Assembly: GCA_965215005.1 (NCBI GenBank)
Contig: CBDCCZ010000054.1
Coordinates: 256,001-320,000, forward strand
DNA from: Kofleriaceae bacterium
GTDB lineage: Bacteria > Myxococcota_A > Polyangia > Haliangiales > Haliangiaceae
Direction of reading: 5' to 3'
Length of the DNA: 64,000 bases
Below, in pieces: positions 31,781 to 46,702 of the stretch; positions within the stretch are counted from its first letter, which is position 1, and each line of letters begins with the position of its first letter. The position numbers were made by a program, and so were the translations under genes. Below the pieces are notes generated by a model. The model was not told where the DNA came from. It searched no databases and saw only the letters and a list, made by a program, of their open reading frames with translations.

Positions 31781-32263
31781 TCAGGCGATATGAAGCTCGA
31801 ACCCGCAGGCTTCATGGCCGAGGCCGCCGATGCAGGTGATTTCGCGCGCCTTGGTCTTCTTGCGAAGCACTCCTTCGACCGCGCCGGCAATCAGTCCGCC
31901 CTCGAAATGGCAAAGCACCCGCCCTACTGGCTCCATGCCGCTGCAGGTGATGCACTCGTAAACGTCGACTTGCATCTTCGACTCGGTCATCACAGGCACC
32001 TTGATGACACCAATCTTCAGCGTCTCGCAGAGAGCCAGAAAATCGTCTAGCGAGGTCAATCCGAGCGACGTGCCGAGCTTCTTTCCCGCGACGTAGGCGG
32101 TGCCGGCAGCGCCTCGACCGATGATGTCCTCGAGCGCGACGAGACGGAGAAGCCGGTAAAGGGCTACGCCAACGTTGTCTCCCAGCGTCGGCCGCAGGAT
32201 CTTGAGGGCGTTGGCAACGTCGACGTTTTGTTCCCTACTCGCGATGGGGGCCACTTCATTCAT
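31781..32263 (-). CDS. Stand-alone V4R (4-vinyl reductase) domain protein
   Basis: YVAGKKLG, YECITCSG, LCHFEGGLIAG, EITCIGGLGHEACGF. Confidence 0.88.
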   Translation of the reverse strand: MNEVAPIASREQNVDVANALKILRPTLGDNVGVALYRLLRLVALEDIIGRGAAGTAYVAGKKLGTSLGLTSLDDFLALCETLKIGVIKVPVMTESKMQVDVYECITCSGMEPVGRVLCHFEGGLIAGAVEGVLRKKTKAREITCIGGLGHEACGFELHIA

Positions 32264-32678
32264 GCATCACCTCCACGACACGGTTAGCACGCTCTTCGCC
32301 GACGTGTCACTGAACGCTTTCAACGCACACGTGGGCGGAGAGTGGTCTCATCTGGACAGACCGCGCGAGGTCCCGCGAATGCGTCACCCGTGATGGGTGA
32401 GTACGATGAGTGGGCGAACTTCCGTGGGGAAACGCCAAAACTGCCGTAGGCGACACTTGGCTGACGCAATTGGTGATGTTGATGACGTCGAACGCAGATG
32501 ATGAGCCGCGCGGAATACGAAAGCAGGGGTGAGAGCCGAAAAATTGGCCGTCTGGTCACGTAGTTTGGTGAAGGCTTGCGGTAGAGATAAGCCGACCGAG
32601 AACTGTTGGTGGCCGCTTTTACGAACATCGTTGTTGTTGATTCGCTAGCGGCAGAGCCCTAGCTTTGAGCCGAGCTTC

Positions 32679-34055
32679 ATGCGCGTTCGCACGGAAAAGG
32701 GCAACGCCCACAACTTCGCCCCCGGATATCGCTTCGGACGCTACACCGTTCAACGATTGCTGGCGCGCGGAGGCATGGGCGAGGTTTGGCTAGGGACAGT
32801 GAGCGGTCCGGGAGGCTTCGCAAAGCGGGTGGTGCTCAAGACCATCCTGCCGGAGCTCGCTGTCGATCAGAGCTATGTGCGCATGTTCATCAACGAGGCC
32901 TCGCTCGCCGCGCGCCTCGATCACCCCAACATCGTCCAGGTGTTCGACCTGGGTGAGCTCGATGGCGCGTACTACATCGCCATGGAGTACGTGGCGGGGG
33001 CGACGCTGTTGCAGCTCGCCGCGTCACACGCTCGGCAAGGTCGGTTGTTGCCGCGGTGGTTCGTCGCCGCGGTAATCGCCGAGGCGTGCGACGGCCTGCA
33101 GTACGCGCATGAGTTCGTGGACGAGGAGCTCGAATCGGCGGGCGTGCTGCACCGCGACATCAGCTTGAGCAACGTGATCGTCTCGAGCGCTGGACGAGTC
33201 GCGCTGCTCGACTTCGGTGTTGCTACGGCCGCCGATGGACCCGACAAGACCCAGTCTGGCTCGCTCAAAGGCAAGTTCCAGTACATGGCGCCCGAGCGGA
33301 TTCGCGGCAGCGATGCCGACCGCCGCTCCGATATCTACTCCGTCGGGGTGCTGCTCTATGAGCTGCTGGTGGGGCGCAAACCGTTTCGCGGACGCACCGA
33401 ATACGAGCTGTTCCGCTCAATCTTGGCGGCGGATGCGCCCGCTCCTAGCGAGCTCACCGCGGGGGTCCCGCCGGAGCTAGACGCGATCGTAGCGCGCGCG
33501 ATGGCCGCCGACGCCGAACATCGATACCAAAGCGCCGACGCGCTCGCCTTCGACTTGCGCGGCTTCGTGCGCATGACCGAAGCGCCTGGCGAGCGCGCCG
33601 ATATCGCTGCCTTCGTGCGCGCCGCGTCCGAAGACGATGAGCCGCTCATCGAGCAGTCCTACGACGACATCTCCTCTGTGCTCGCCGAGCTTCCTTCGGT
33701 CGATATCCAGCTAGAGGAAGAGGGCTCGCTGAGCGCTCATTTTGCTGCGGCTTCGGAGGCGTCGTGGAGCCCATCATTAGATGACGCCGCTGGGGGTGAG
33801 CCCGAGGACGTGCTGCGCCAGCGGTGGCCGCGCGCGTCCTCCTCGCTTCCCGAGGTGCCGGTTCAAACGGCCACCTCCGGAGACCTGTTTCCTGAGCTCA
33901 CCCCAACTCGGCGCACTGTCATTCGTGAGGTCGCCGACTTGTTCAGCGCCCCGGCAGACGCCGCGAATCGCACCTCAGATGTCTTCGAGACGACGCCGCG
34001 TGACGGCGTTCGCGCCGAGGGCCGTTGGCCCTGGCTAGACAAAGAACGCAAGTAA
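32679..34055 (+). CDS. Cytoplasmic Hanks-type Ser/Thr kinase
   Basis: ARGGMGEVW, VVLK, HRDIS..N, DFG, GKFQYMAPE; acidic disordered tail, no TM. Confidence 0.93.
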   Translation: MRVRTEKGNAHNFAPGYRFGRYTVQRLLARGGMGEVWLGTVSGPGGFAKRVVLKTILPELAVDQSYVRMFINEASLAARLDHPNIVQVFDLGELDGAYYIAMEYVAGATLLQLAASHARQGRLLPRWFVAAVIAEACDGLQYAHEFVDEELESAGVLHRDISLSNVIVSSAGRVALLDFGVATAADGPDKTQSGSLKGKFQYMAPERIRGSDADRRSDIYSVGVLLYELLVGRKPFRGRTEYELFRSILAADAPAPSELTAGVPPELDAIVARAMAADAEHRYQSADALAFDLRGFVRMTEAPGERADIAAFVRAASEDDEPLIEQSYDDISSVLAELPSVDIQLEEEGSLSAHFAAASEASWSPSLDDAAGGEPEDVLRQRWPRASSSLPEVPVQTATSGDLFPELTPTRRTVIREVADLFSAPADAANRTSDVFETTPRDGVRAEGRWPWLDKERK

Positions 34056-34068
34056 CCTGGAGGAATTT

Positions 34069-34437
34069 GTGGGAACCCTGGCTAAGAGCGTGAGTGATCA
34101 GTTGCGCGTACTGCGTACGAGCACACCGGAGATTCTCGGCGCCGTCGTCGTGACGATGGACGGTTTCGTGGTGTCGTCGGTGATCCCCTCGGAGGTCGAC
34201 GAAGAGCTCATCGGCGGCATGGCAGCGGCGCTCTTGGGTGTGGGCGAGCGTATTGCCCATGACTTGATGCGAGCGAGCATGGAGCAGGTCTACGTTCGCT
34301 CTCCCAAGGGATACGTAGTAATCAACGCAATCTCCAAAGATAGCGCCTTGGTTCTGTTGGTTACGCGGGAGGCAAAGCTCGGCCTCATCTTCCTGGAGCT
34401 GAAACGAGCTATTGCCGAACTGGCGAGGGTGATGTAA
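34069..34437 (+). CDS. Roadblock/LC7 (MglB-like) protein
   Basis: EILGAVVVTMDGFVVSS, GMAAALLGVGER, AKLGLIFLELKR; GGAGG RBS. Confidence 0.93.
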   Translation: MGTLAKSVSDQLRVLRTSTPEILGAVVVTMDGFVVSSVIPSEVDEELIGGMAAALLGVGERIAHDLMRASMEQVYVRSPKGYVVINAISKDSALVLLVTREAKLGLIFLELKRAIAELARVM

Positions 34438-34442
34438 GAAGG

Positions 34443-35231
34443 GTGCGGGAAGGGGGGAACTTGTCAGCAGGGGGACCAGCAAAGATCGGATGTGCGTTAG
34501 CCTTGTTGGTTGGGCTGGCGGACCTCATGGTGCTCAACTTGCAACTTGCGCCGGCAGCGATGCGTGCCGACGAGGCTCCGCCCGAGGTAATGATGGCGGC
34601 TGGCTCGACGCAGCCCGCAGCAGCCAAGGCAGTGGTTCGAGCAATGCCACATGCTGCTGCTCGAACAGCCGCGAGTGCAGTAATCAATCCGCAGGCAGAC
34701 CAACGCGCAGGTCATGACGAGACAATTTCCGACACAGCGGCGGATCCGGAGGCTGAGCTCGTTGCCACGCTAGATCCTCCGTCTGAAGCGCCTGCTGGTG
34801 AGGCGCCCGCCTACGAGGTGACTGAAGATGCGACTGAAATCGAGGACGAGGCTTCGCCGGAGTCGAGTGACCCGCTGCCACGCCTGGTCTCGTCGGTCGC
34901 AATCTACTTCACGACCGATCGAGCAACGCTAGGTCCAAGGGCGCAGGAGCGGCTAACGATGTTTAGCACCCGCATGCAACGAGCCTCGGGTCGCAGCGAC
35001 GTGCGCGTGCACATCCGCGGCTATGCCGACCGGCGCGGAGACGATTCGTATAACGAGATTCTAAGCAGAAAACGGGCGGAGCGAGTTGCCTCCTATCTAA
35101 GCGAACTCGGTTTGGCGCCTGGCGCGATCGAGGTCGCTTGGTTTGGTGAAGACCCACAAGACTCTGTGCCGCTTTGGAAGATGCGCCGGGTGGACGTCGA
35201 GCTTGCACCCTTCGAGGAGGATGTCCCATGA
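34443..35231 (+). CDS. Membrane-anchored OmpA-like peptidoglycan-binding protein
   Basis: N-terminal hydrophobic anchor, acidic linker, IYFTTD, GYADRRG..YNEILSRKRAERV, RRVDV. Confidence 0.88.
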   Translation: MREGGNLSAGGPAKIGCALALLVGLADLMVLNLQLAPAAMRADEAPPEVMMAAGSTQPAAAKAVVRAMPHAAARTAASAVINPQADQRAGHDETISDTAADPEAELVATLDPPSEAPAGEAPAYEVTEDATEIEDEASPESSDPLPRLVSSVAIYFTTDRATLGPRAQERLTMFSTRMQRASGRSDVRVHIRGYADRRGDDSYNEILSRKRAERVASYLSELGLAPGAIEVAWFGEDPQDSVPLWKMRRVDVELAPFEEDVP

Positions 35232-35929
35232 GTCCCATCGCGCTTGTATGGTTGGCTTCGCTCCTCGGAGCTGTGGCGTTCTTCACTGCGGGCGCGCTGT
35301 TTGCGCGGAGTCGTCGTGCGCCCGCGCAGCCGGCGATAAATGTCCTCGGGCCGAGAAGCCAAGAGGAAGACCCATGGGAGTCGGCGCCGGCGCTGGCGCA
35401 AATACAGAAGTTGCGCCAGGAAAACGCCGAGCTTCGGCTCCTGGCTGAGCAGAATGCCGCTTTGCAGCAGCGATTGGATGCTGCGCAAGTCGAGCTTTCG
35501 ACTCACGAAGAGCACTCTCGTCTCACCACGGTGCCGACGATCTCACTGCCAAGAGCTCCGACCGACGGACTCACCACGGCCGCTGCGTTGGAAACGCTAT
35601 TGGCACGTATCGCGGCAACCGAGGGCATTCGAGCGGTCGTGCTAGCAGATGATATCGGATTGCCGGTGGCGGGAATTGGCGAATATACCAATCAGCTGTC
35701 AGCCTTCGCCGGGTTCATTCGCGACGTTGGCAATAAGACGATGAATCACTTGGCGATGCGCGAGCTCATTCGCATCGAGTTGGAAGACGTTGCCGGTACC
35801 ACCCTCACCGCATGCCCCTTGCGGACGGGAGACGTTGAGCTGTCGTTGGTCACCTTGAGCGTTGGGGCGAAACCCAGTACGCAACACATGAGTCGGATCC
35901 TCGAATCCGCAGGGAGGATGTTCCAATGA
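35228..35929 (+). CDS. TM + coiled coil + C-terminal roadblock-like domain protein
   Basis: N-terminal TM, QKLRQENAELRLLAEQNAALQQRL coiled coil, EGIRAVVLADDIGLPVAG; ATGA overlaps at both ends. Confidence 0.75.
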   Translation: MSPIALVWLASLLGAVAFFTAGALFARSRRAPAQPAINVLGPRSQEEDPWESAPALAQIQKLRQENAELRLLAEQNAALQQRLDAAQVELSTHEEHSRLTTVPTISLPRAPTDGLTTAAALETLLARIAATEGIRAVVLADDIGLPVAGIGEYTNQLSAFAGFIRDVGNKTMNHLAMRELIRIELEDVAGTTLTACPLRTGDVELSLVTLSVGAKPSTQHMSRILESAGRMFQ

Positions 35930-36753
35930 ATCTGCTCCAACAGCGTCCACCACACTCCTACGAGCCCGCTCTGGCGGAGCCCACTGCATTCGACGCCCTC
36001 GAGCTCGATCTAGTGGGGTTGCGGCATGATCTGATGAGCCACGAGCTCTACCCGCTGGTGGATAGCATCCCGCGGCTGCGCGTGTTTATGCAGGTCCATG
36101 TGTTTGCGGTGTGGGACTTCATGTCCCTCGTAAAGCGTCTGCAAGCGGACCTTGCGGGCACGCAGCTGCCGTGGCGACCCCCGGTCAGCAAGTCTCTGTC
36201 GCGGTTCATCAACGAGGTCGTTTTGACCGAGGAATCCGATCAGGGGCCGGACGGGGAGCCGGAGAGCCACCTCGAAATTTATCTCGGGGCGATGGAGGAG
36301 ATCGGCGCGCCGACCCGCCAGTTCCGCACCTTTCTCGAGCACATCACCGCGGGCGCTTCGGTCCGCGCGGCGCTGCGCGCGGTAGACGCGCCGCGGTTCG
36401 TTCGTCGCTTTGTCAGCTCGACCATCGAATGCGCGATCGAAGGCAGCTCGGCCGAGGTTGCTTCGTCGTTCCTGTTTGGTCGTGAGGACCTGATTCCCGA
36501 CATGTTCCAGCGGATCCTTCGTCCGTGGCCAAAGAACGACCTGTCGATCCGACGCTTCCGATTCTATCTCGAGCGCCACATCGAGCTCGATGGCGATGAG
36601 CACGGCCCAATTGCCCGGCGTGCGCTCACCGAGATGGCGGGCACGGATGATCGGCAGTGGAAGATGGCTCGGAAATCGGCTCGGCGAGCGATTATCTCGC
36701 GCGTTCGCCTGTGGGACGGCGTTTGTCGGATCATCCGCGAGGGCAAGGTCTAA
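35926..36753 (+). CDS. DUF3050 family protein (heme-oxygenase-like fold)
   Basis: HELY, FMQVHVFAVWDFMSLVKRLQ, INEVVLTEESD, SHLEIYL, GREDLIPDMF, YLERHIELDGDEHGP, RLWDG. Confidence 0.88.
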   Translation: MNLLQQRPPHSYEPALAEPTAFDALELDLVGLRHDLMSHELYPLVDSIPRLRVFMQVHVFAVWDFMSLVKRLQADLAGTQLPWRPPVSKSLSRFINEVVLTEESDQGPDGEPESHLEIYLGAMEEIGAPTRQFRTFLEHITAGASVRAALRAVDAPRFVRRFVSSTIECAIEGSSAEVASSFLFGREDLIPDMFQRILRPWPKNDLSIRRFRFYLERHIELDGDEHGPIARRALTEMAGTDDRQWKMARKSARRAIISRVRLWDGVCRIIREGKV

Positions 36754-36908: not shown

Positions 36909-37352
36909 CTACGCCCAGGGCATTGCGAGCGCTGCAGCGTCGGGTCCGCCATTGCCGATCATGACGGTGGCCACCGGCACGATCACCACGGCGTTCATCT
37001 TCATGCCGAGATCGTTGCATGAGGTCGCCGGATCCGTCACTCGCGCCGCCGGCTTGCCGTTGATCTTCACGGTGAACGAGCCAAGCTCGATGGTGGCGCT
37101 GTTTTGCGCCGGACGCTGAAACGTGGTTCCCGGCGGGGTTGGCAAGTGTACCGGCAGGTTGGTCGCCTGCGACCCCTGGGTGGCCGCTTTGCGATTGTCG
37201 ATGAAGACGTCGCTCGAGAGCCCGGTGTCGAGTTTGCCGTAAAAGACGTGGGGCAGTGGTGTTGGCACCGGTCCGCCAGGCGAGGGCACCATCACGATGT
37301 GCACGTCGAGGCCCTGAACGAAGTCATTTTCCTTGGCGGCGGGAAGACCCAT
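36909..37352 (-). CDS. PAAR domain spike-tip protein
   Basis: PAAK, KAAT, GSFTVKINGKPAARVTD, H/H/C potential Zn ligands, TVMIG. Confidence 0.88.
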   Translation of the reverse strand: MGLPAAKENDFVQGLDVHIVMVPSPGGPVPTPLPHVFYGKLDTGLSSDVFIDNRKAATQGSQATNLPVHLPTPPGTTFQRPAQNSATIELGSFTVKINGKPAARVTDPATSCNDLGMKMNAVVIVPVATVMIGNGGPDAAALAMPWA

Positions 37353-41113: not shown

Positions 41114-42274
41114 ATGCGCATCGCCTATGTCCTCGACCAGCTCTTGCCCAACACCGAGGCAGACACCGAGCAGGCCATCAACACCATCTCGGCGTTGGTG
41201 CGGCAAGGCGCTGAAGTGGTGCTGCACGTGCCGCGGTTGCTGGGCAGCGCAGGGGTGTCTTCAGCCGCACTACGCGCTCATTATAAGGTGGAGGAGGAGC
41301 TGGCAATCGAGCAGCTTTGGGCACCGCTCGCGAGCGTGCGCGCAATCATCAAGCTCTTGCATCCGCTGCGGGTGACGACCGGCGCCGATCTTGGGAACTT
41401 CGATATCGTCTACACGCGCAACCTTCCGGCCGTGGCGAGCGCGCTAGCGAGCGATCATCGCGTCGTCTACGAGACGTATCGGCCGTGGCCCGCTCAGTAT
41501 CCACGCGTGGCGCCGGCGTTTCGGCTGGTCATGGGCCACCGTGGCTTCGTAGGTGCTGTGCTTCATTCGCAGCTTGCCAAAGAGAGTTACGCCGCCATTG
41601 GAGTATCGGATGACGTACTCGAAGTGGTGCACAATGGCTTCTCTCCCGCGCTCTTCGAGCCGCAGTTGTCGCAGGCTTCGGCACGGGCAGCGCTCGATCT
41701 GCCGGCGGATCGCTTCATCGCTGTCTATAGTGGTCGCGTGAGTCGCAAAAAGGGGCTCGACCTGGTGCTGGACATGGCGCGCCAACTTCCAGAGGTCTTG
41801 TTCCTGCTCGTTGGGTCACAACGTGAAGGAGCCATTGAGCAGTCCGCGCGTGAGCTCGACAACGTGCAGGTGCACCCGTGGATGCCGTTCGATCGGGTCG
41901 CGCCGTTTCTGTACGCTGCCGATGTACTTCTCGTGCCTCCCAGCCTCGGGCCACTGCAAAGGTCGCGAAACACCGTACTGCCGCTCAAGTTGTTTTCCTA
42001 TCTCGCCGCGGGTCGGCCCATTTTGGCACCACGAGCGCCAGACACTGCCGAGCTGTTGCGCCATGAGGAAACCGCGGTGCTCGTGCCGGCCGATGAGCTC
42101 GCGGCCGCCGTTGCCGGTTTGCGACGTCTGCGCGAGCAGCCAGAGCTCGCCGAGCGCCTCGGCCGGAAGTGTCGCCAGCTTGCTGACGGACTCACGTGGG
42201 ACGCGCGCGGACGTCGCCTGCTCGACTTCATCGAGCGGCGGCTCGAGCGCATGACGCCGTCGCGAGCCGCATGA
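41114..42274 (+). CDS. Glycosyltransferase family 4
   Basis: HNG, YSGRVSRKKG, PLKLFSYLAAGRPI, TWDAR. Confidence 0.9.
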   Translation: MRIAYVLDQLLPNTEADTEQAINTISALVRQGAEVVLHVPRLLGSAGVSSAALRAHYKVEEELAIEQLWAPLASVRAIIKLLHPLRVTTGADLGNFDIVYTRNLPAVASALASDHRVVYETYRPWPAQYPRVAPAFRLVMGHRGFVGAVLHSQLAKESYAAIGVSDDVLEVVHNGFSPALFEPQLSQASARAALDLPADRFIAVYSGRVSRKKGLDLVLDMARQLPEVLFLLVGSQREGAIEQSARELDNVQVHPWMPFDRVAPFLYAADVLLVPPSLGPLQRSRNTVLPLKLFSYLAAGRPILAPRAPDTAELLRHEETAVLVPADELAAAVAGLRRLREQPELAERLGRKCRQLADGLTWDARGRRLLDFIERRLERMTPSRAA

Positions 42275-43983
42275 CGAGTGGCCTCTACGTGGTGGCTGGA
42301 GCGCCGCCTTCGACCCCCGCTCTGCCATGTTCGGGCGGCATCTGGGCCCAGGCTCGAGGTGTGCTGGCCTCGAGTGCCCAGCGGGGTTCGCTCGAGCTGC
42401 TCTTCGAGGGCATCCTCACCGGCGGGCGTGCCGCAGATGCCGACGATGCGCAGGTGGCGCTCGAGGCGTTCGAGCGTGGTGGTGTGGAGGCGTTGCGCTC
42501 GCTCGATGGCTTCTACCAGCTGGCGCTGATCGACACCGTGCGCGGCTCGGCCACCATCGTCTGCGATGCGATGGCAACGCGACCTCTTTACGTCTATGCC
42601 GGCGCGGGTGTGGCTGCGATCGCTCCCTCTCCGGCTTGGTTTGCGGGCCTCGGGCTGCCGATGCAGCTCGACCGGCTTGGCCTTTACCAGGTGTTTCGAC
42701 TCAACCACGGCATCGGCGGACGCACCCTGGCGCGCGAGGTGACGCGAAGCCGCCCACTCACGGTCTATGAGCTCAGCGGCGACGGCAGTGTCCGCCGCTG
42801 GGGCCTGGAGCCGGTGCGCAAGCGCAGTGATGCTTCCATGACCCTCGATGCCGCCACCGACCGGCTGCGCGATATTACCGCCGAGGTCATCGCTGGAATC
42901 GTGAGTCATCCGCGGCTCCGCGCGCGGCAGATTCACCTTCCACTCACGGCGGGCATGGACTCGCGGCACCTCCTCGCCGAGTTGCTACGCCAGGACCGAG
43001 CTCCGGCGCTGTTGCGCCACGTGCGGCTGAGCGACAACGAGTTGCTACCGGTGGCAGCGATTGCCGCCGATTACAAGCTACCGCTGCAGGCCACGGACGT
43101 AGCCAACCTGGATTACTCGAGTCTCTGCCGTCGATGGGTCGAGACCGCTGGCGCAGTGCACTTTCATCAGATGTATCTGATGGCGGTGGCCGATGCGCCT
43201 GTGGGCAGCGGCGTGCTCGGCTTCGATGGCTACCTAGCGGACATCTTTCTTGGCTTCTATCCGTTCACCACTGCAATCGGCAACCGCTATTACAGTCGTG
43301 TCATGTTGCGCCGCTGGTTTGATGATCATCGTAGCCTCGATGCCGCCACCAACGCGGAGATAGACGCCGAGCTCGCGCTGTTTGCGGGACCAGAGAGCTT
43401 TTGCATCGGCGGTGCCGAAAGCTTCAACCGCGGCCTTTGCTACACGGGCTCGGTGTTTCCGGTGCTTGGGGACGATGCGCTGTACTTTGCGCCCGGTGCT
43501 CATCGAAAAGCGCTGGATTTCTACTGCACGGTGCCAGAAGCCGTGGCCGGCGCCAAGCGGGCCCGGCTGCACTTATTTCGGCGCGACTTTCCCGCGCTTG
43601 GCGCGTATCCAAACGAATATGGCACGAGCTATCTCGAGCTCGACACACTTTACAATTCCAAGAGTGTGCCATGGAGCAAGGCTCTCGCCTTCGCTCGGGG
43701 AATGCTCACGCCGCGCCGTCATGATCCAGCGCCTGACACCGAGCACGCATGGCTGCGCCAGATTGCGCCACTCCACGCGCTATCGCGACGCGTGAGCCAC
43801 GACAGCGCACTCGCCGCTGATGGCCATCTGCCCGCATCGCGTCTAGCTCGGGCGTGGCGGCTTCATCAAGCGGGGGCGTTTCTGGCGTGGCCGCTCATGA
43901 GCTCGATCACGGCTGACGTGGGGTACCGTGTGCTGATATGCCGCCAACCGCCCGATGAAGTTGCCGGGTGGCTGCAGAGTTGA
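42271..43983 (+). CDS. Asparagine-synthetase-related protein (polysaccharide-locus type)
   Basis: LDGFY...DAMATRPLY (Ntn-like remnant), LPLTAGMDSR (PP-loop variant), GFDGY; ATGA overlap with GT4. Confidence 0.7.
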   Translation: MTSGLYVVAGAPPSTPALPCSGGIWAQARGVLASSAQRGSLELLFEGILTGGRAADADDAQVALEAFERGGVEALRSLDGFYQLALIDTVRGSATIVCDAMATRPLYVYAGAGVAAIAPSPAWFAGLGLPMQLDRLGLYQVFRLNHGIGGRTLAREVTRSRPLTVYELSGDGSVRRWGLEPVRKRSDASMTLDAATDRLRDITAEVIAGIVSHPRLRARQIHLPLTAGMDSRHLLAELLRQDRAPALLRHVRLSDNELLPVAAIAADYKLPLQATDVANLDYSSLCRRWVETAGAVHFHQMYLMAVADAPVGSGVLGFDGYLADIFLGFYPFTTAIGNRYYSRVMLRRWFDDHRSLDAATNAEIDAELALFAGPESFCIGGAESFNRGLCYTGSVFPVLGDDALYFAPGAHRKALDFYCTVPEAVAGAKRARLHLFRRDFPALGAYPNEYGTSYLELDTLYNSKSVPWSKALAFARGMLTPRRHDPAPDTEHAWLRQIAPLHALSRRVSHDSALAADGHLPASRLARAWRLHQAGAFLAWPLMSSITADVGYRVLICRQPPDEVAGWLQS

Positions 43984-43993
43984 TGCTCGTCCT

Positions 43994-45475
43994 ATGACCG
44001 ATGCTTCCAACGATGATGCGTTTCGCAAGCGTGTCGCCTTCTCGTTCTTGTACACAGGTGTTGGCAACGCCGTAAGTAAGATCGTCAACGTGGTGGCGCT
44101 GCTCATCGCCATCAAGCTGGTCACCAAGGAGCAATTTGGTGCGGCAAGCTTGGTGCTGGCGGCGATCGCCATTCTCCGCAGCGTCACCGAGATGAGCCTG
44201 GGTGTGGCGCTAGTGCAAGCAAAGGAGCTGCGCAGCCGAGACGTGCACTCGCTGTTTTGGTTGTCGCTGCTGGTCTCACTGCTGTTTTACGCGTTGCTCG
44301 CCTTGGTCGGGGCGCCGCTGTTTGCGTGGTTCTATGATGAGCCAGAGCTGGCGGCGCTGTTGCGAGTGCACAGTCTCACGATCATCGTGTTCTCGTTCTA
44401 CTTCGTGTCACGCACTCTCATGGAACGAGAGCTGCTCTTTGGCCGCATGGCCATCATCGACAACGTCGCACTCACTGCTGGCTCTGCTGTGATGATTTTG
44501 CTGGCGATGCGCGGATGGGGCGCTTGGTCGTTCGTCTGCGCCGACGTAGCGTATCGCCTGGTCCAGGCGTTGCTCTCGCAGCTGGCAAGGCCGTATTTGC
44601 CGCGCTGGAACTTTCGTGTGCGCCAAGTTTGGCACATGGTCACGTTTGGCGGTTACGCGGCGGGCTCGCGCCTTCTGTATAATTTTTATACCCAAGCCGA
44701 CTATCTCATCGTCGGCAAGATCTTCGGTCCAGAGGAGCTCGCTATCTACACCATTGCGTACCGGGTGATCAGCGATCCCGTGAAGGCACTCGCAACGGTA
44801 GTAAACCAGGTTGCCTATCCTGCGTTTGCGCGTCTGCAAGAAGAACGCGAGCGGCTCGAGCGGTACTTCTTCACGATCGCCCGCCTATCACTAGCTTTGA
44901 TTGGGCTGATCCTGGTCGCCGTGCTCGTCTTCATCGATCTGGTGCTCGAGGGCTTTGGCTATCAGAGGTACATGGCTGCGGTGCCACTCATGTACGTTTT
45001 CGGCTTCATGGGTCTGCTGCAAGCCGCTGCGCCGCTGGTCCCTCAGCTCCTCAATGCAGTGGGACGCCCGCGACAAAATTTCCTGTATTCTGCTTCGTGC
45101 GCGGTCACCTTGCCGATTGCGTTCTTCGTTGGCGCGCAGGTAGCTCTAGCTGGCGTCGCGGTAGCCTGGCTCGTCGGTTATCCGCTCGTGGTGCTGCTGC
45201 TGTTTTGGTTTGGCGCCCGTGCTCTGGAGATTTCGCTCGGGCGCATGCTGGTCGGGGCGTTCTCTGGGCTCGTCGTGTTGGTGCCCGTGGCCCTCGTTGC
45301 GGTCGCGCTGCGCTTGCTGCTCACGCGGGCCCTTGCGCTCGATCCGGCGTTGGCGGCGTTGCTCGGAATTGGCGGCACGTTGCTCATCGGCGGCGGCGTC
45401 GCGTTCCTTCGCGAGCGCGCGGATTTGCGCTCGGTCCGCCGCGGTCTAGCCGCGCCGAAACGCGATGCTCCGTGA
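43994..45475 (+). CDS. Wzx-type oligosaccharide flippase
   Basis: EQFG, SLGVALVQ, FYDEPEL, QADYLIVGK, VAYPAFARLQ; many TMs. Confidence 0.9.
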   Translation: MTDASNDDAFRKRVAFSFLYTGVGNAVSKIVNVVALLIAIKLVTKEQFGAASLVLAAIAILRSVTEMSLGVALVQAKELRSRDVHSLFWLSLLVSLLFYALLALVGAPLFAWFYDEPELAALLRVHSLTIIVFSFYFVSRTLMERELLFGRMAIIDNVALTAGSAVMILLAMRGWGAWSFVCADVAYRLVQALLSQLARPYLPRWNFRVRQVWHMVTFGGYAAGSRLLYNFYTQADYLIVGKIFGPEELAIYTIAYRVISDPVKALATVVNQVAYPAFARLQEERERLERYFFTIARLSLALIGLILVAVLVFIDLVLEGFGYQRYMAAVPLMYVFGFMGLLQAAAPLVPQLLNAVGRPRQNFLYSASCAVTLPIAFFVGAQVALAGVAVAWLVGYPLVVLLLFWFGARALEISLGRMLVGAFSGLVVLVPVALVAVALRLLLTRALALDPALAALLGIGGTLLIGGGVAFLRERADLRSVRRGLAAPKRDAP

Positions 45476-45577
45476 GCCGTGGAGGTTCCGCTACGCGATC
45501 GGGTGACACAGTAGTGAGAAGTGTGGAGCGCAGAAGATGCGCCTGGCATGTAGCATGCTTATCAACGCGCTCAGCTC

Positions 45578-46702
45578 GTGAAAAACGTTTGCGCACTTCT
45601 CTTACTTGAAATCATCTACGCGGCCTATCCGCTGCCTGTTGCCGCGCAGGAGTCGCGATCGGCAGCCGAAGTCGAGAACGGCGATGACGCGCAGCAGGCA
45701 GAGGTGCCACGCGGATGGCTGCTGCTGCCGGGCTTGAGTTTCTCGGACGACCGGGGCGTAACCGCGGCCCTGGCACTTTTCTACTACTTTGCCGCTGATG
45801 ATAACTCGCGCCCTTCGGAGGTGCGTGTAGGCACAGCGGTGAGCAGCCAGGGCGACTACAACATTGACCTCAGGCCACTCTTACGCCTCCACAAGGATGC
45901 GCTCGCTGTCATAGGAGTCGTTGATGCGTCACAGCAGAGCTGGCAGTTCTGGGGCATCGGCAACGATGCGCCGCGTGACGCCGAAGCGACGTATCAGCGC
46001 CGTCGAGTCGTGGGCCAGGTGGCGGTTCTATACCGAGTCTTGGCCGATTTGCGCGTGGGGCCCATGCTCGATCTGCAGAACGTGTCGAACCTGGAGATCG
46101 AGACTGCAGGCGCGTTCAGCGAGCCCCAGATGGTGCGCGGGACCGAAGGCGGATGGGTCGTGGGGCCGGCCGTACGGGCCCAGTGGGACAGCCGCAACCG
46201 GGTATTTGCGCCGCATGCAGGTTGGCTAATTGAGAGCCAGGCGCGGCATTATGACCGTCTCTTCGGCAGCGACTATACGTTTAGCGCCTTCAGTCTGGAC
46301 GTGCGCACCTACCGCGAGCTGGCCCGAGAACACGTCCTGGCGCTGCAGGCGTTTGGGGACTTTCGCACCGGCCAACCGCCCTTCGACCAGATGTCAGTCG
46401 CCGGAGGGTTCAATTTGCTACGTGGCATGCCGCGCGGTCGCCTTCGCGATCTCCACTACGTTGCGGGACAAGCGGAGTATCGCAGTCCCATTTTTCTCTG
46501 GCGCTTTGGCGTCGCCGCGTTTCTCGGTGCCGGTCGTGTCGCACCTCGAATTCCCGACTTCATTGCCCGGGGGTGGATCTATTCGGCGGGCGGCGGCTTG
46601 CGATTCGCCGTAAAAGAACGCGACGGGGTTCATGTGCGCCTCGATGTGGCGCGAACCAACGATTCAAGCGGCATCTACCTCGACATCCTTGAAGCCTTCT
46701 GA
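45578..46702 (+). CDS. Omp85/BamA-TamA family barrel protein, apparently POTRA-less
   Basis: Signal peptide; WDSRN, LDVRTY, LLRGMPRGRLRD, QAEYR, GGGLRF; C-terminal EAF. Confidence 0.82.
   Translation: MKNVCALLLLEIIYAAYPLPVAAQESRSAAEVENGDDAQQAEVPRGWLLLPGLSFSDDRGVTAALALFYYFAADDNSRPSEVRVGTAVSSQGDYNIDLRPLLRLHKDALAVIGVVDASQQSWQFWGIGNDAPRDAEATYQRRRVVGQVAVLYRVLADLRVGPMLDLQNVSNLEIETAGAFSEPQMVRGTEGGWVVGPAVRAQWDSRNRVFAPHAGWLIESQARHYDRLFGSDYTFSAFSLDVRTYRELAREHVLALQAFGDFRTGQPPFDQMSVAGGFNLLRGMPRGRLRDLHYVAGQAEYRSPIFLWRFGVAAFLGAGRVAPRIPDFIARGWIYSAGGGLRFAVKERDGVHVRLDVARTNDSSGIYLDILEAF

Follow-up and report, generated by a model that had tools for sequence, protein, structure and literature searches.

A GTPase-less roadblock cassette with exchangeable metalloprotein neighbors that may serve modular gas or redox sensing

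A five-gene core encoding a Ser/Thr kinase, a soluble roadblock protein (RB1), an OmpA-like protein with a single transmembrane (TM) segment (TM-OmpA), a TM-coiled-coil-roadblock protein (RB2) and a V4R protein recurs, in several gene orders, in Myxococcota, Desulfobacterota and Fibrobacterota; recurrence in three phyla is beyond chance. The scaffold lacks a GTPase switch and has varied gas- and redox-related metalloproteins as neighbors, and could therefore provide modular sensing of oxygen, hydrogen and carbon monoxide. The cassette may represent an undescribed form of modular gas/redox sensing, and our literature search found no paper joining the five-gene core with its hydrogenase version. 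We favor, at about an even chance, the reading that the cassette encodes a scaffold anchored in the membrane for redox/gas sensing, in which an exchangeable metalloprotein is the input, the Cys-rich V4R protein the relay and the kinase the output; its interactions, signal direction and output are what we infer.

Results

Organization of the cassette

The cassette lies in a 64,000-nt window (the whole stretch of DNA analyzed) from a Kofleriaceae bacterium. ORF coordinates and Pfam matches confirmed the six genes and domains of the preliminary description, as well as its spacing for the co-directional genes, with gaps of 13 and 5 nt followed by two ATGA overlaps (Table 1). Shine-Dalgarno-like GGAGG/AGAAGG motifs are located 5' of five of the six genes, the kinase gene being the one without. 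No sigma-70 consensus site was found by scanning the V4R/kinase intergenic region, and a promoter/terminator scan against shuffled sequences returned 0 promoters and 5 terminators (4.1 expected). The cassette is flanked by an acetyl-CoA synthetase gene and a PAAR gene (Pfam), and mglBA of the same genome is approximately 220 kb away. No small GTPase was found within the cassette.

Table 1. Features of the cassette, with positions in the window
Feature	Position	Strand	Evidence
V4R (stand-alone, 160 aa)	31781..32263	-	Pfam V4R 3e-12; Bet3/PoxR fold
Divergent intergenic region, 415 nt	32264..32678	.	Sequence
Hanks-type Ser/Thr kinase, cytoplasmic	32679..34055	+	Pfam Pkinase 1e-35, motifs, hydropathy
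RB1, soluble roadblock, 122 aa	34069..34437	+	Pfam Robl_LC7 1e-11
TM-OmpA: single TM, Pro/Glu-rich linker, OmpA-like peptidoglycan-binding domain	34443..35231	+	Pfam OmpA 9e-14
RB2: TM, coiled coil, divergent roadblock	35228..35929	+	Profiles, AlphaFold model
DUF3050/HamA-family heme-oxygenase-like iron enzyme	35926..36753	+	Pfam DUF3050 2e-82

Roadblock domains

RB1 is the most conserved part of the cassette, with 38–88% identity across phyla. Its nearest solved structures are Asgard roadblocks (7f8m, E = 2e-24, compared with E = 0.005 for MglB), and it also matches the CvnB5 structure 3leq (E = 2e-8). RB2 alone matched the Pfam roadblock model weakly (E = 0.019), and its comparison with the RB1 profile, taken alone, gave 38% probability. 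Among the orthologous C-termini, Robl_LC7 was matched in 26/44 and LAMTOR5 in 19/44 at E ≤ 0.05, and the RB2 profile matched the Asgard roadblock 7f8m (E = 1.7e-4). The AlphaFold model of RB2 (pLDDT 91) aligned with 7f8m at a TM-score of 0.76 and with Myxococcus xanthus MglB at approximately 0.72; in an ESM Atlas search, unnamed clusters scored 0.91 and a roadblock cluster no more than 0.80. The model and the ortholog profiles thus agree on a roadblock fold for the RB2 C-terminus and, together with Pfam, uphold the earlier proposal of two roadblocks, one soluble and one membrane-tethered through a coiled coil. The TM segment of RB2 carries the motif S-x-x-G-A-x-x-F-F-x-x-G, the last glycine of which is present in 74 of 76 N-termini.

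Kinase, TM-OmpA and V4R proteins

The kinase has intact active-site motifs (K54, HRD158-160, N165 and DFG178-180), and neither a TM segment nor a sensor domain was detected by Pfam and hydropathy. The VAIK Lys, HRD Asp, Asn and DFG Asp are complete here and in 28 of the 30 complete cassette kinases, the other 8 of 38 having been left out as incomplete or unaligned. In CODH-type copies of the cassette the kinase appears degenerate. The kinase ends in an acidic, low-complexity tail with a terminal WPW; such WPW tails occur in 14/38 cassette kinases and TPR-like tails in 11/38. Of 41 loci, 9 have a receiver-DUF4388 (PATAN) protein in place of the kinase; a C-terminal TPR-like motif is common to these proteins and the cassette kinases.

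The OmpA domain of TM-OmpA supports its proposed place as a peptidoglycan-binding envelope anchor. Its TM motif is G-x-x-D-L-x-x-L-[ND]-x4-P, with G in 77, D in 62, N/D in 69 and P in 68 of 79 N-termini; an ESM Atlas search with the N-terminus gave no usable match. A MotB-type stator was considered because of the conserved TM Asp, and was ruled out: MotB models match the OmpA domain only, no multi-TM partner (MotA) is present and the Asp sits mid-helix.

A V4R domain, a Bet3-like fold and a Cys cluster are all present in the V4R protein, with E103, C104, C107, C118, C144 and C153 invariant in 32/32 sequences. Fold searches matched YslB, MJ1460, PoxR, MopR and Bet3, and the match to the MsvR model (4e-10) fell below the cut-off. 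We propose V4R as a candidate redox/ligand relay.

Exchangeable metalloprotein neighbors

Six alternative neighbors accompany the core: [NiFe]-hydrogenase, CO dehydrogenase (CODH), a multiheme module, protoglobin/hemerythrin, ODP and DUF3050. Among 41 well-flanked loci (dereplicated, at least 4 kb on both sides), one such module was within 6 kb of the core in 35 and absent in 6; 32 of the 35 modules were no more than 500 nt from a core gene. The heme module was found 14 times, the hydrogenase type 13 times (12 with subunits and 1 with only a ferredoxin-V4R gene), DUF3050 3 times, CODH and globin/hemerythrin twice each and ODP once; the module classes were picked after the neighbors had been viewed, and the loci are best hits that are related to one another. 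Modules occurred in 158/5000 random windows with a strict set and 709/5000 with a loose one (3–14%), and in 2/128 kinase-centered windows, this background being drawn from the present genome alone, which is aerobe-like and has no hydrogenase or CODH. Nine Fibrobacterota loci, two of them repeats of loci already sampled (L270 is L123, and L269 resembles L134/L131), were retrieved after the idea had been formed, and 8/9 carried CooS or hydrogenase; in the ninth, RB1 was broken and CooS missing.

Hydrogenase copies encode a ferredoxin fused to a V4R-like domain, which matches V4R weakly (HHalign 6.7%, E = 0.005), and a second V4R protein (HHalign 94.7%). The cassette hydrogenases are Mvh/Vhu-like (best match VhuA/VhuG, below the cut-off) and retain the L1/L2 motifs and a protease; CODH copies retain CooF, CooC and often an NADH oxidoreductase, and both could therefore be plain metabolic enzymes.

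The closest solved relative of the DUF3050 protein is HamA (9vwb, E = 3.5e-63). The six active-site residues named for HamA in PMC12522199 (H40, E84, H96, R167, H199 and R240) correspond to H58, E102, H115, R186, H218 and R259 here. CADD-type di-iron ligands are also present (E102, H115, E187, H218, D222 and H226), as they are in HamA. According to the structural account in PMC12522199, HamA is a mono-iron, 2-oxoglutarate enzyme, solved with one iron and with 1.5 Fe per protein by ICP. Because this closest relative is reported as mono-iron, the "di-iron" label is uncertain, and the "di-iron oxidase" first suggested was not borne out as stated. No NRPS, HamC-like or AurF-like partner gene was found at the locus; AurF matches lie elsewhere.

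If the metalloprotein were instead an output, as in the conservon-like model of the preliminary description, the scaffold would control, localize or be co-regulated with a redox enzyme, and the HamA-like enzyme would make or modify a small signal bound by V4R. We know of no described job of HamA other than a biosynthetic one, which counts against the sensory reading. The DUF3050 proteins HamA and MgoB work in small-molecule pathways (PMC12522199, PMC3298696), in six genomes of this genome's family (Haliangiaceae) DUF3050 comes after V4R in the same orientation, V4R folds bind small hydrophobic ligands and the hydrogenase and CODH partners appear catalytically complete. However, no product is common to six unrelated enzymes, all of which can report gas or redox state, and neither ODP nor protoglobin/hemerythrin is a biosynthetic enzyme, both being binders. 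The partner pattern favors an input role for the metal protein, and we consider the output explanation unlikely.

Conservation of the core without a GTPase

The GTPase-less character noted at first sight is conserved, with a GTPase in 0/81 dereplicated core loci and no MglA within four genes of a cassette roadblock, whereas the same search found GTPases in 10/49 sister roadblock loci. The OmpA gene is present in 34/41 loci and missing from some copies. Of five Desulfobacterota-centered loci with weaker RB1 matches, the one examined (L276) has a receiver-DUF4388 protein and a roadblock, and no cassette.

The cassette could also be an accessory polarity module in which RB1, with or without RB2, acts in trans on MglA as an extra GAP/GEF-like regulator at the envelope and the neighbors are secondary. 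The second helix region of RB1 is nearly invariant, the GTPases at sister loci are MglA-type and MglA is encoded elsewhere in 10/10 cassette genomes checked. This co-occurrence is uninformative because MglA is present in 170/201 genomes of one sampled phylum; moreover, RB1 barely resembles MglB of its own genome (a 29-residue match), MglA and one SofG-like match are all that this genome offers, neither being of the sister-roadblock type, and V4R and the metal partners are left unexplained. As a full account it is about as improbable as the output explanation, but action on MglA can be combined with the redox/gas scaffold as its output step.

DUF3050 as an optional partner

Synteny across genomes upheld the core of the proposed gene set, which is kept in three phyla, but not the place of DUF3050 within it. 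Its linkage to the cassette and V4R is real, as seen in seven Haliangiaceae genomes of four genera and in one further locus (L067). With 3 of the 41 well-flanked loci, DUF3050 is an optional, exchangeable partner and not the fixed enzymatic output once envisaged. Where DUF3050 is encoded away from the cassette, in four family genomes, the cassette has the heme module instead, and DUF3050 and heme labels are interleaved in the RB1 tree. That the core is real and DUF3050 merely a passenger in this window would fit its presence in only 4/81 loci of the first sample and the 17/24 family DUF3050 genes not seen beside a cassette, but is very improbable given the linkage above, with DUF3050 placed in three ways with respect to the core, the 7/10 cassette-linked members of one supported DUF3050 clade (the L067 copy lies outside it) and the ATGA overlap of the RB2 and DUF3050 genes.

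Discussion

In the favored redox/gas-sensing scaffold, RB1 and RB2 would together make up a roadblock platform. The RB2 helix would tether this platform to the inner membrane and may pair with the TM-OmpA helix, TM-OmpA itself being fixed to peptidoglycan. The Cys-rich V4R protein would receive from the metalloprotein a signal on substrate or redox state (H2, CO, O2 or electron flow), and the kinase, or the receiver-PATAN protein in other copies, would dock on the platform through its C-terminal tail and relay the signal. Here, the HamA-like iron enzyme would serve as input and report on O2, Fe(II) or 2-oxoglutarate. By ancestry, the likeliest final output is motility or polarity.

A more specific and more doubtful version is a plug-in gas sensor. 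The roadblock heterodimer would be fixed to the wall by the helix pair with its conserved intramembrane Asp, and V4R would replace the GTPase on the roadblocks in a bacterial TRAPP/Ragulator-like contact, reading electrons or oxidation from the plugged-in metalloenzyme. If true, CODH and the Mvh-like hydrogenase would have a sensory role, and the Fe/2-oxoglutarate enzyme here would sense oxygen on behalf of a Ser/Thr kinase.

PMC4316618 reported 328 MglB homologs that lack a GTPase, none of them characterized as of 2014, and one clade of these gains a testable job. If the metalloenzymes are interchangeable sensors, some of the hydrogenase and CODH genes that metagenome studies take as metabolic markers would be sensory, DUF3050 would have a role beyond natural-product clusters, and the cassette would offer a small bacterial model for GTPase-free cooperation of two folds, roadblock and Bet3/V4R, that occur together in membrane complexes of eukaryotes.

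Among known systems, MglA-MglB modules with PATAN (DUF4388) receivers share MglB-fold roadblocks, sometimes two per locus (PMC4316618), and the kinase-slot replacement and TPR-like motif link the cassette to sister MglA loci. Unlike these modules, the cassette lacks a GTPase and adds V4R, a TM-tethered roadblock, TM-OmpA and metal partners. The conservon CvnABCD (PMC4316618) likewise combines a kinase and a roadblock in one operon, but the membrane His kinase CvnA, CvnC and the GTPase CvnD are absent from the six genes (Pfam), with a soluble Hanks kinase instead. The conservon analogy of the preliminary description is thus loose: the CvnB-like roadblock stands, whereas the kinase has neither a membrane segment nor a sensor domain, and MglA-PATAN-roadblock cassettes carry receiver-PATAN proteins in the same slot. 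Group 1 Rup systems also have TM-OmpA and coiled-coil proteins in a signaling operon, but they have a GTPase and no MglB (PMC4316618), the reverse of the cassette. HamA (PMC12522199) and MgoB are DUF3050 proteins, and the six named HamA residues are kept. Unlike them, the cassette enzyme has a signaling rather than a biosynthetic gene context.

MsvR has a redox role, and Ragulator is laid out as a membrane-tethered roadblock pair. Judged from genes and folds, the cassette would resemble Ragulator and TRAPP in joining such a pair to a Bet3-fold subunit. A Cys-rich V4R protein beside CODH is also like CorR, cited in PMC6557876 as a CO sensor. Unlike CorR and MsvR, the cassette has no DNA-binding partner and, unlike Ragulator and TRAPP, no Rag/Rab GTPase. 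In the sensory [NiFe]-hydrogenases of groups 2b and 2c, too, a gas-converting enzyme is wired to signaling genes, whereas the cassette partner is Mvh/Vhu-like, is accompanied by a protease and can be exchanged for any of five other metalloproteins.

The cassette core and its distribution

All six open reading frames of the preliminary description were recovered (Table), the five co-directional genes separated by gaps of 13 and 5 nt and then two ATGA overlaps, and the V4R, protein kinase, roadblock, OmpA and DUF3050 domains were confirmed with Pfam. The proposal that the C terminus of RB2, the membrane-tethered coiled-coil protein, adopts a roadblock fold also held. Alone, it gave a weak Pfam match (E 0.019); among 44 orthologous C termini, 26 matched Robl_LC7 and 19 LAMTOR5, the RB2 profile retrieved a Thorarchaeota roadblock, and the structural model (pLDDT 91) overlaid on the Asgard roadblock 7f8m and Myxococcus xanthus MglB with TM scores of 0.72–0.76. 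Together, the ortholog matches, profile match and overlay show that the modeled domain is a roadblock.

Loci with the soluble roadblock (RB1) were collected from relatives, the best 80 of 340 matches on GTDB contigs, the best 80 of 435 in metagenomes and a phylum sample. Short first-round loci (20) and duplicates (8) were left out, and 192 loci were dereplicated to 130 at 95% RB1 identity: among the matches listed, 81 in the cassette clade and 49 sister loci outside it. In the 41 cassette loci flanked by at least 4 kb on each side, RB2 was found in 38, a V4R-type gene in 35, TM-OmpA in 34, the kinase in 31 and DUF4388 (PATAN) in 9, again among the matches listed. With the same scope, no small GTPase gene was found in these 41 or in all 81 cassette loci, and 10/49 sisters had one. 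V4R is divergent in the window; elsewhere it is on the same strand, after RB2 or before the kinase. The cassette is patchy, occurring in 24/138 genomes of the family, 7/401 of the phylum sample (E < 1e-40) and 13/201 of a Fibrobacterota-centered sample; the nearest RB1 proteins (85–87% identity; best 80 of 340 GTDB contigs) are annotated as Kofleriaceae or delta proteobacteria.

In one sister clade (L031–L039, L113, L207, L218 and L219), the roadblock is accompanied by a PAS histidine kinase, a receiver-DUF4388 protein and ODP (PF19583), and in many cases also by a ParA-like gene; ODP occurs in 14/49 sister loci among the matches listed. Orphan roadblocks of Anaerolineae (L085–L110) recurrently lie directly upstream of a putative CTP synthase gene, as judged from the encoded N terminus.

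Table. Positions of cassette genes and additional features
Feature	Position	Strand	Remark
V4R	window 31781–32263	−	
Kinase	window 32679–34055	+	
RB1	window 34069–34437	+	
TM-OmpA	window 34443–35231	+	
RB2	window 35228–35929	+	
DUF3050	window 35926–36753	+	
PAAR gene	window 36909–37352	−	stand-alone, convergent with DUF3050; none seen in related loci
AT skew	window 42001–46000		strongly negative (−0.14 to −0.24) versus remainder of window
Canonical mglB-mglA pair, this genome	L040:7612–8697 (G000:C54:67.6–68.7 kb)		one SofG-like match on C18
Third, fused roadblock-like domain	L153:2036–2977		E 3e-4; upstream of degenerate kinase and RB1
Broken RB1	L275:8700–8975		two stops; transposase-like ORF adjoining; CooS gone; counterpart L269 intact
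Redox module	L041:10083–14043		NirB N-terminal flavoprotein/BFD part without siroheme domains, then multiheme cytochrome and Tll0287-like protein
HDO + cupin	L254:11548–12771		second heme-oxygenase-like family, flanking cassette
HDO + cupin	L255:3204–4424		as above
HDO + cupin	L143:271–1500		as above

Metalloprotein modules adjoin the core

A pattern beyond what the window by itself can show emerged from annotation of 64 plus 32 chosen neighbors of cassette loci. Desulfobacterota-type copies share an operon with a [NiFe]-hydrogenase resembling Mvh/Vhu and with a maturation protease; the operon also encodes a second V4R (HHalign 94.7%) and a ferredoxin whose fused domain resembles V4R weakly (HHalign 6.7%). 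Fibrobacterota copies surround CooF, CooS (over the cut-off), V4R and CooC. The neighbor of Myxococcota copies is DUF3050, a protoglobin/hemerythrin, or a multiheme cytochrome accompanied by a Tll0287-like heme protein and by either a membrane or a NirB-like partner; ODP is present at two basal loci.

One of these six kinds of metal or heme redox module adjoins the core in 35/41 well-flanked loci, within 500 nt in 32 (among the matches listed); inspection of the neighbors of the other six found none. In this genome, modules occur in 3.2% of random windows (14% under a loose definition) and 2/128 kinase-centered windows, a contrast that is indicative and not a p-value because the classes were fixed after inspection, the loci are related and the background genome has neither hydrogenase nor CODH. 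In a partial forward test, CooS or hydrogenase was present at 8/9 further Fibrobacterota loci, two of the nine being repeats of earlier loci; the ninth (L275) lacks CooS and has stops in RB1. In its counterpart L269, CooS is short, at 519 aa, and under the cut-off, and there are two kinase genes. Profile searches of this genome found neither a heme module nor any hydrogenase, CODH, ODP or globin. The HDO + cupin gene adjoins RB1 in 2 of the 22 family genomes that carry it.

DUF3050 is linked to the cassette as a minority partner

The V4R/roadblock/DUF3050 synteny of the preliminary description proved a real linkage, but DUF3050 is a minority partner, at 4/81 cassette loci among the matches listed. 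The 138 family genomes contain 24 strong DUF3050 genes, of which 7 (G000, G023, G014, G030, G547, G549 and G508; four genera) adjoin a cassette V4R or RB2, the contigs of G014 and G030 stopping before RB1. A FastTree phylogeny (23 rows; partial and weak matches and G478 left out) placed these linked genes as 7/10 members of one supported clade, with an eighth linked copy, at L067, where it precedes the kinase by 1 kb, outside it. Four genomes have a cassette and an unlinked DUF3050, and in all four a heme module adjoins the cassette. In three supported clades of the RB1 tree, which was built from 86 rows and 120 columns and leaves many forks open, loci labeled DUF3050 and heme are intermixed, a pattern that fits either exchange or differential loss.

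Among solved structures, HamA is closest to the window DUF3050 (E 3.5e-63); it is reported in PMC12522199 as a mono-iron, 2-oxoglutarate-binding oxygenase acting on NRPS-bound valine. All six residues named there are kept, as are the CADD-type di-iron ligands (PMC4520260); no NRPS or HamC-like gene adjoins the window DUF3050.

Conserved features of the kinase, membrane helices and V4R

The window kinase is soluble with intact motifs. Among 38 cassette kinase tails, 11 have a TPR-like motif and 14, including the window kinase, a WPW end; the same TPR-like motif ends receiver-DUF4388 proteins both in the cassette kinase slot and at sister MglA loci. CODH-type kinases (L082, L083, L121 and L123) have HGN, HGA or HGC for HRD and lack DFG, so they are likely pseudokinases.

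The membrane helices of TM-OmpA (G-x-x-D-L-x-x-L-[ND]-x4-P; D in 62/79) and RB2 (S-x-x-G-A-x-x-F-F-x-x-G) are conserved beyond mere hydrophobicity, which suggests that they may form a helix pair. Cassette V4R has five invariant cysteines and one glutamate, one cysteine more than the zinc site described for PoxR and Thor-TRAPPC3 (four cysteines; PMC10933270), which would leave room for a redox thiol. PMC6557876 cites a Thermococcus V4R protein next to CODH as a sensor of CO.

A possible sensing scaffold

Domains, gene linkage, GTPase absence in cis and the partner pattern are directly established. From these, we give about even weight to a sensing scaffold: an exchangeable metalloprotein, here the HamA-like enzyme, would signal to the scaffold, V4R would relay the signal to the kinase, and the kinase would provide the output, the contacts, the direction and the output all being inferred. 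The reverse direction, with the metalloprotein enzyme as output of the scaffold, seems unlikely. Regulation of MglA in trans is to our mind equally unlikely, and is compatible with the sensing scaffold. That DUF3050 is a passenger is very improbable.

Relation to known systems

Our literature searches, mostly outside subscription papers, turned up neither the core nor roadblock loci associated with gas-handling enzymes; such loci could be listed in the orphan-MglB tables of PMC4316618 or in the supplement of bioRxiv 10.64898/2026.10.19.760177. That the cassette is a plug-in gas sensor of a new type is less likely than not. We class the cassette as a variant of the roadblock-PATAN signaling cassettes.
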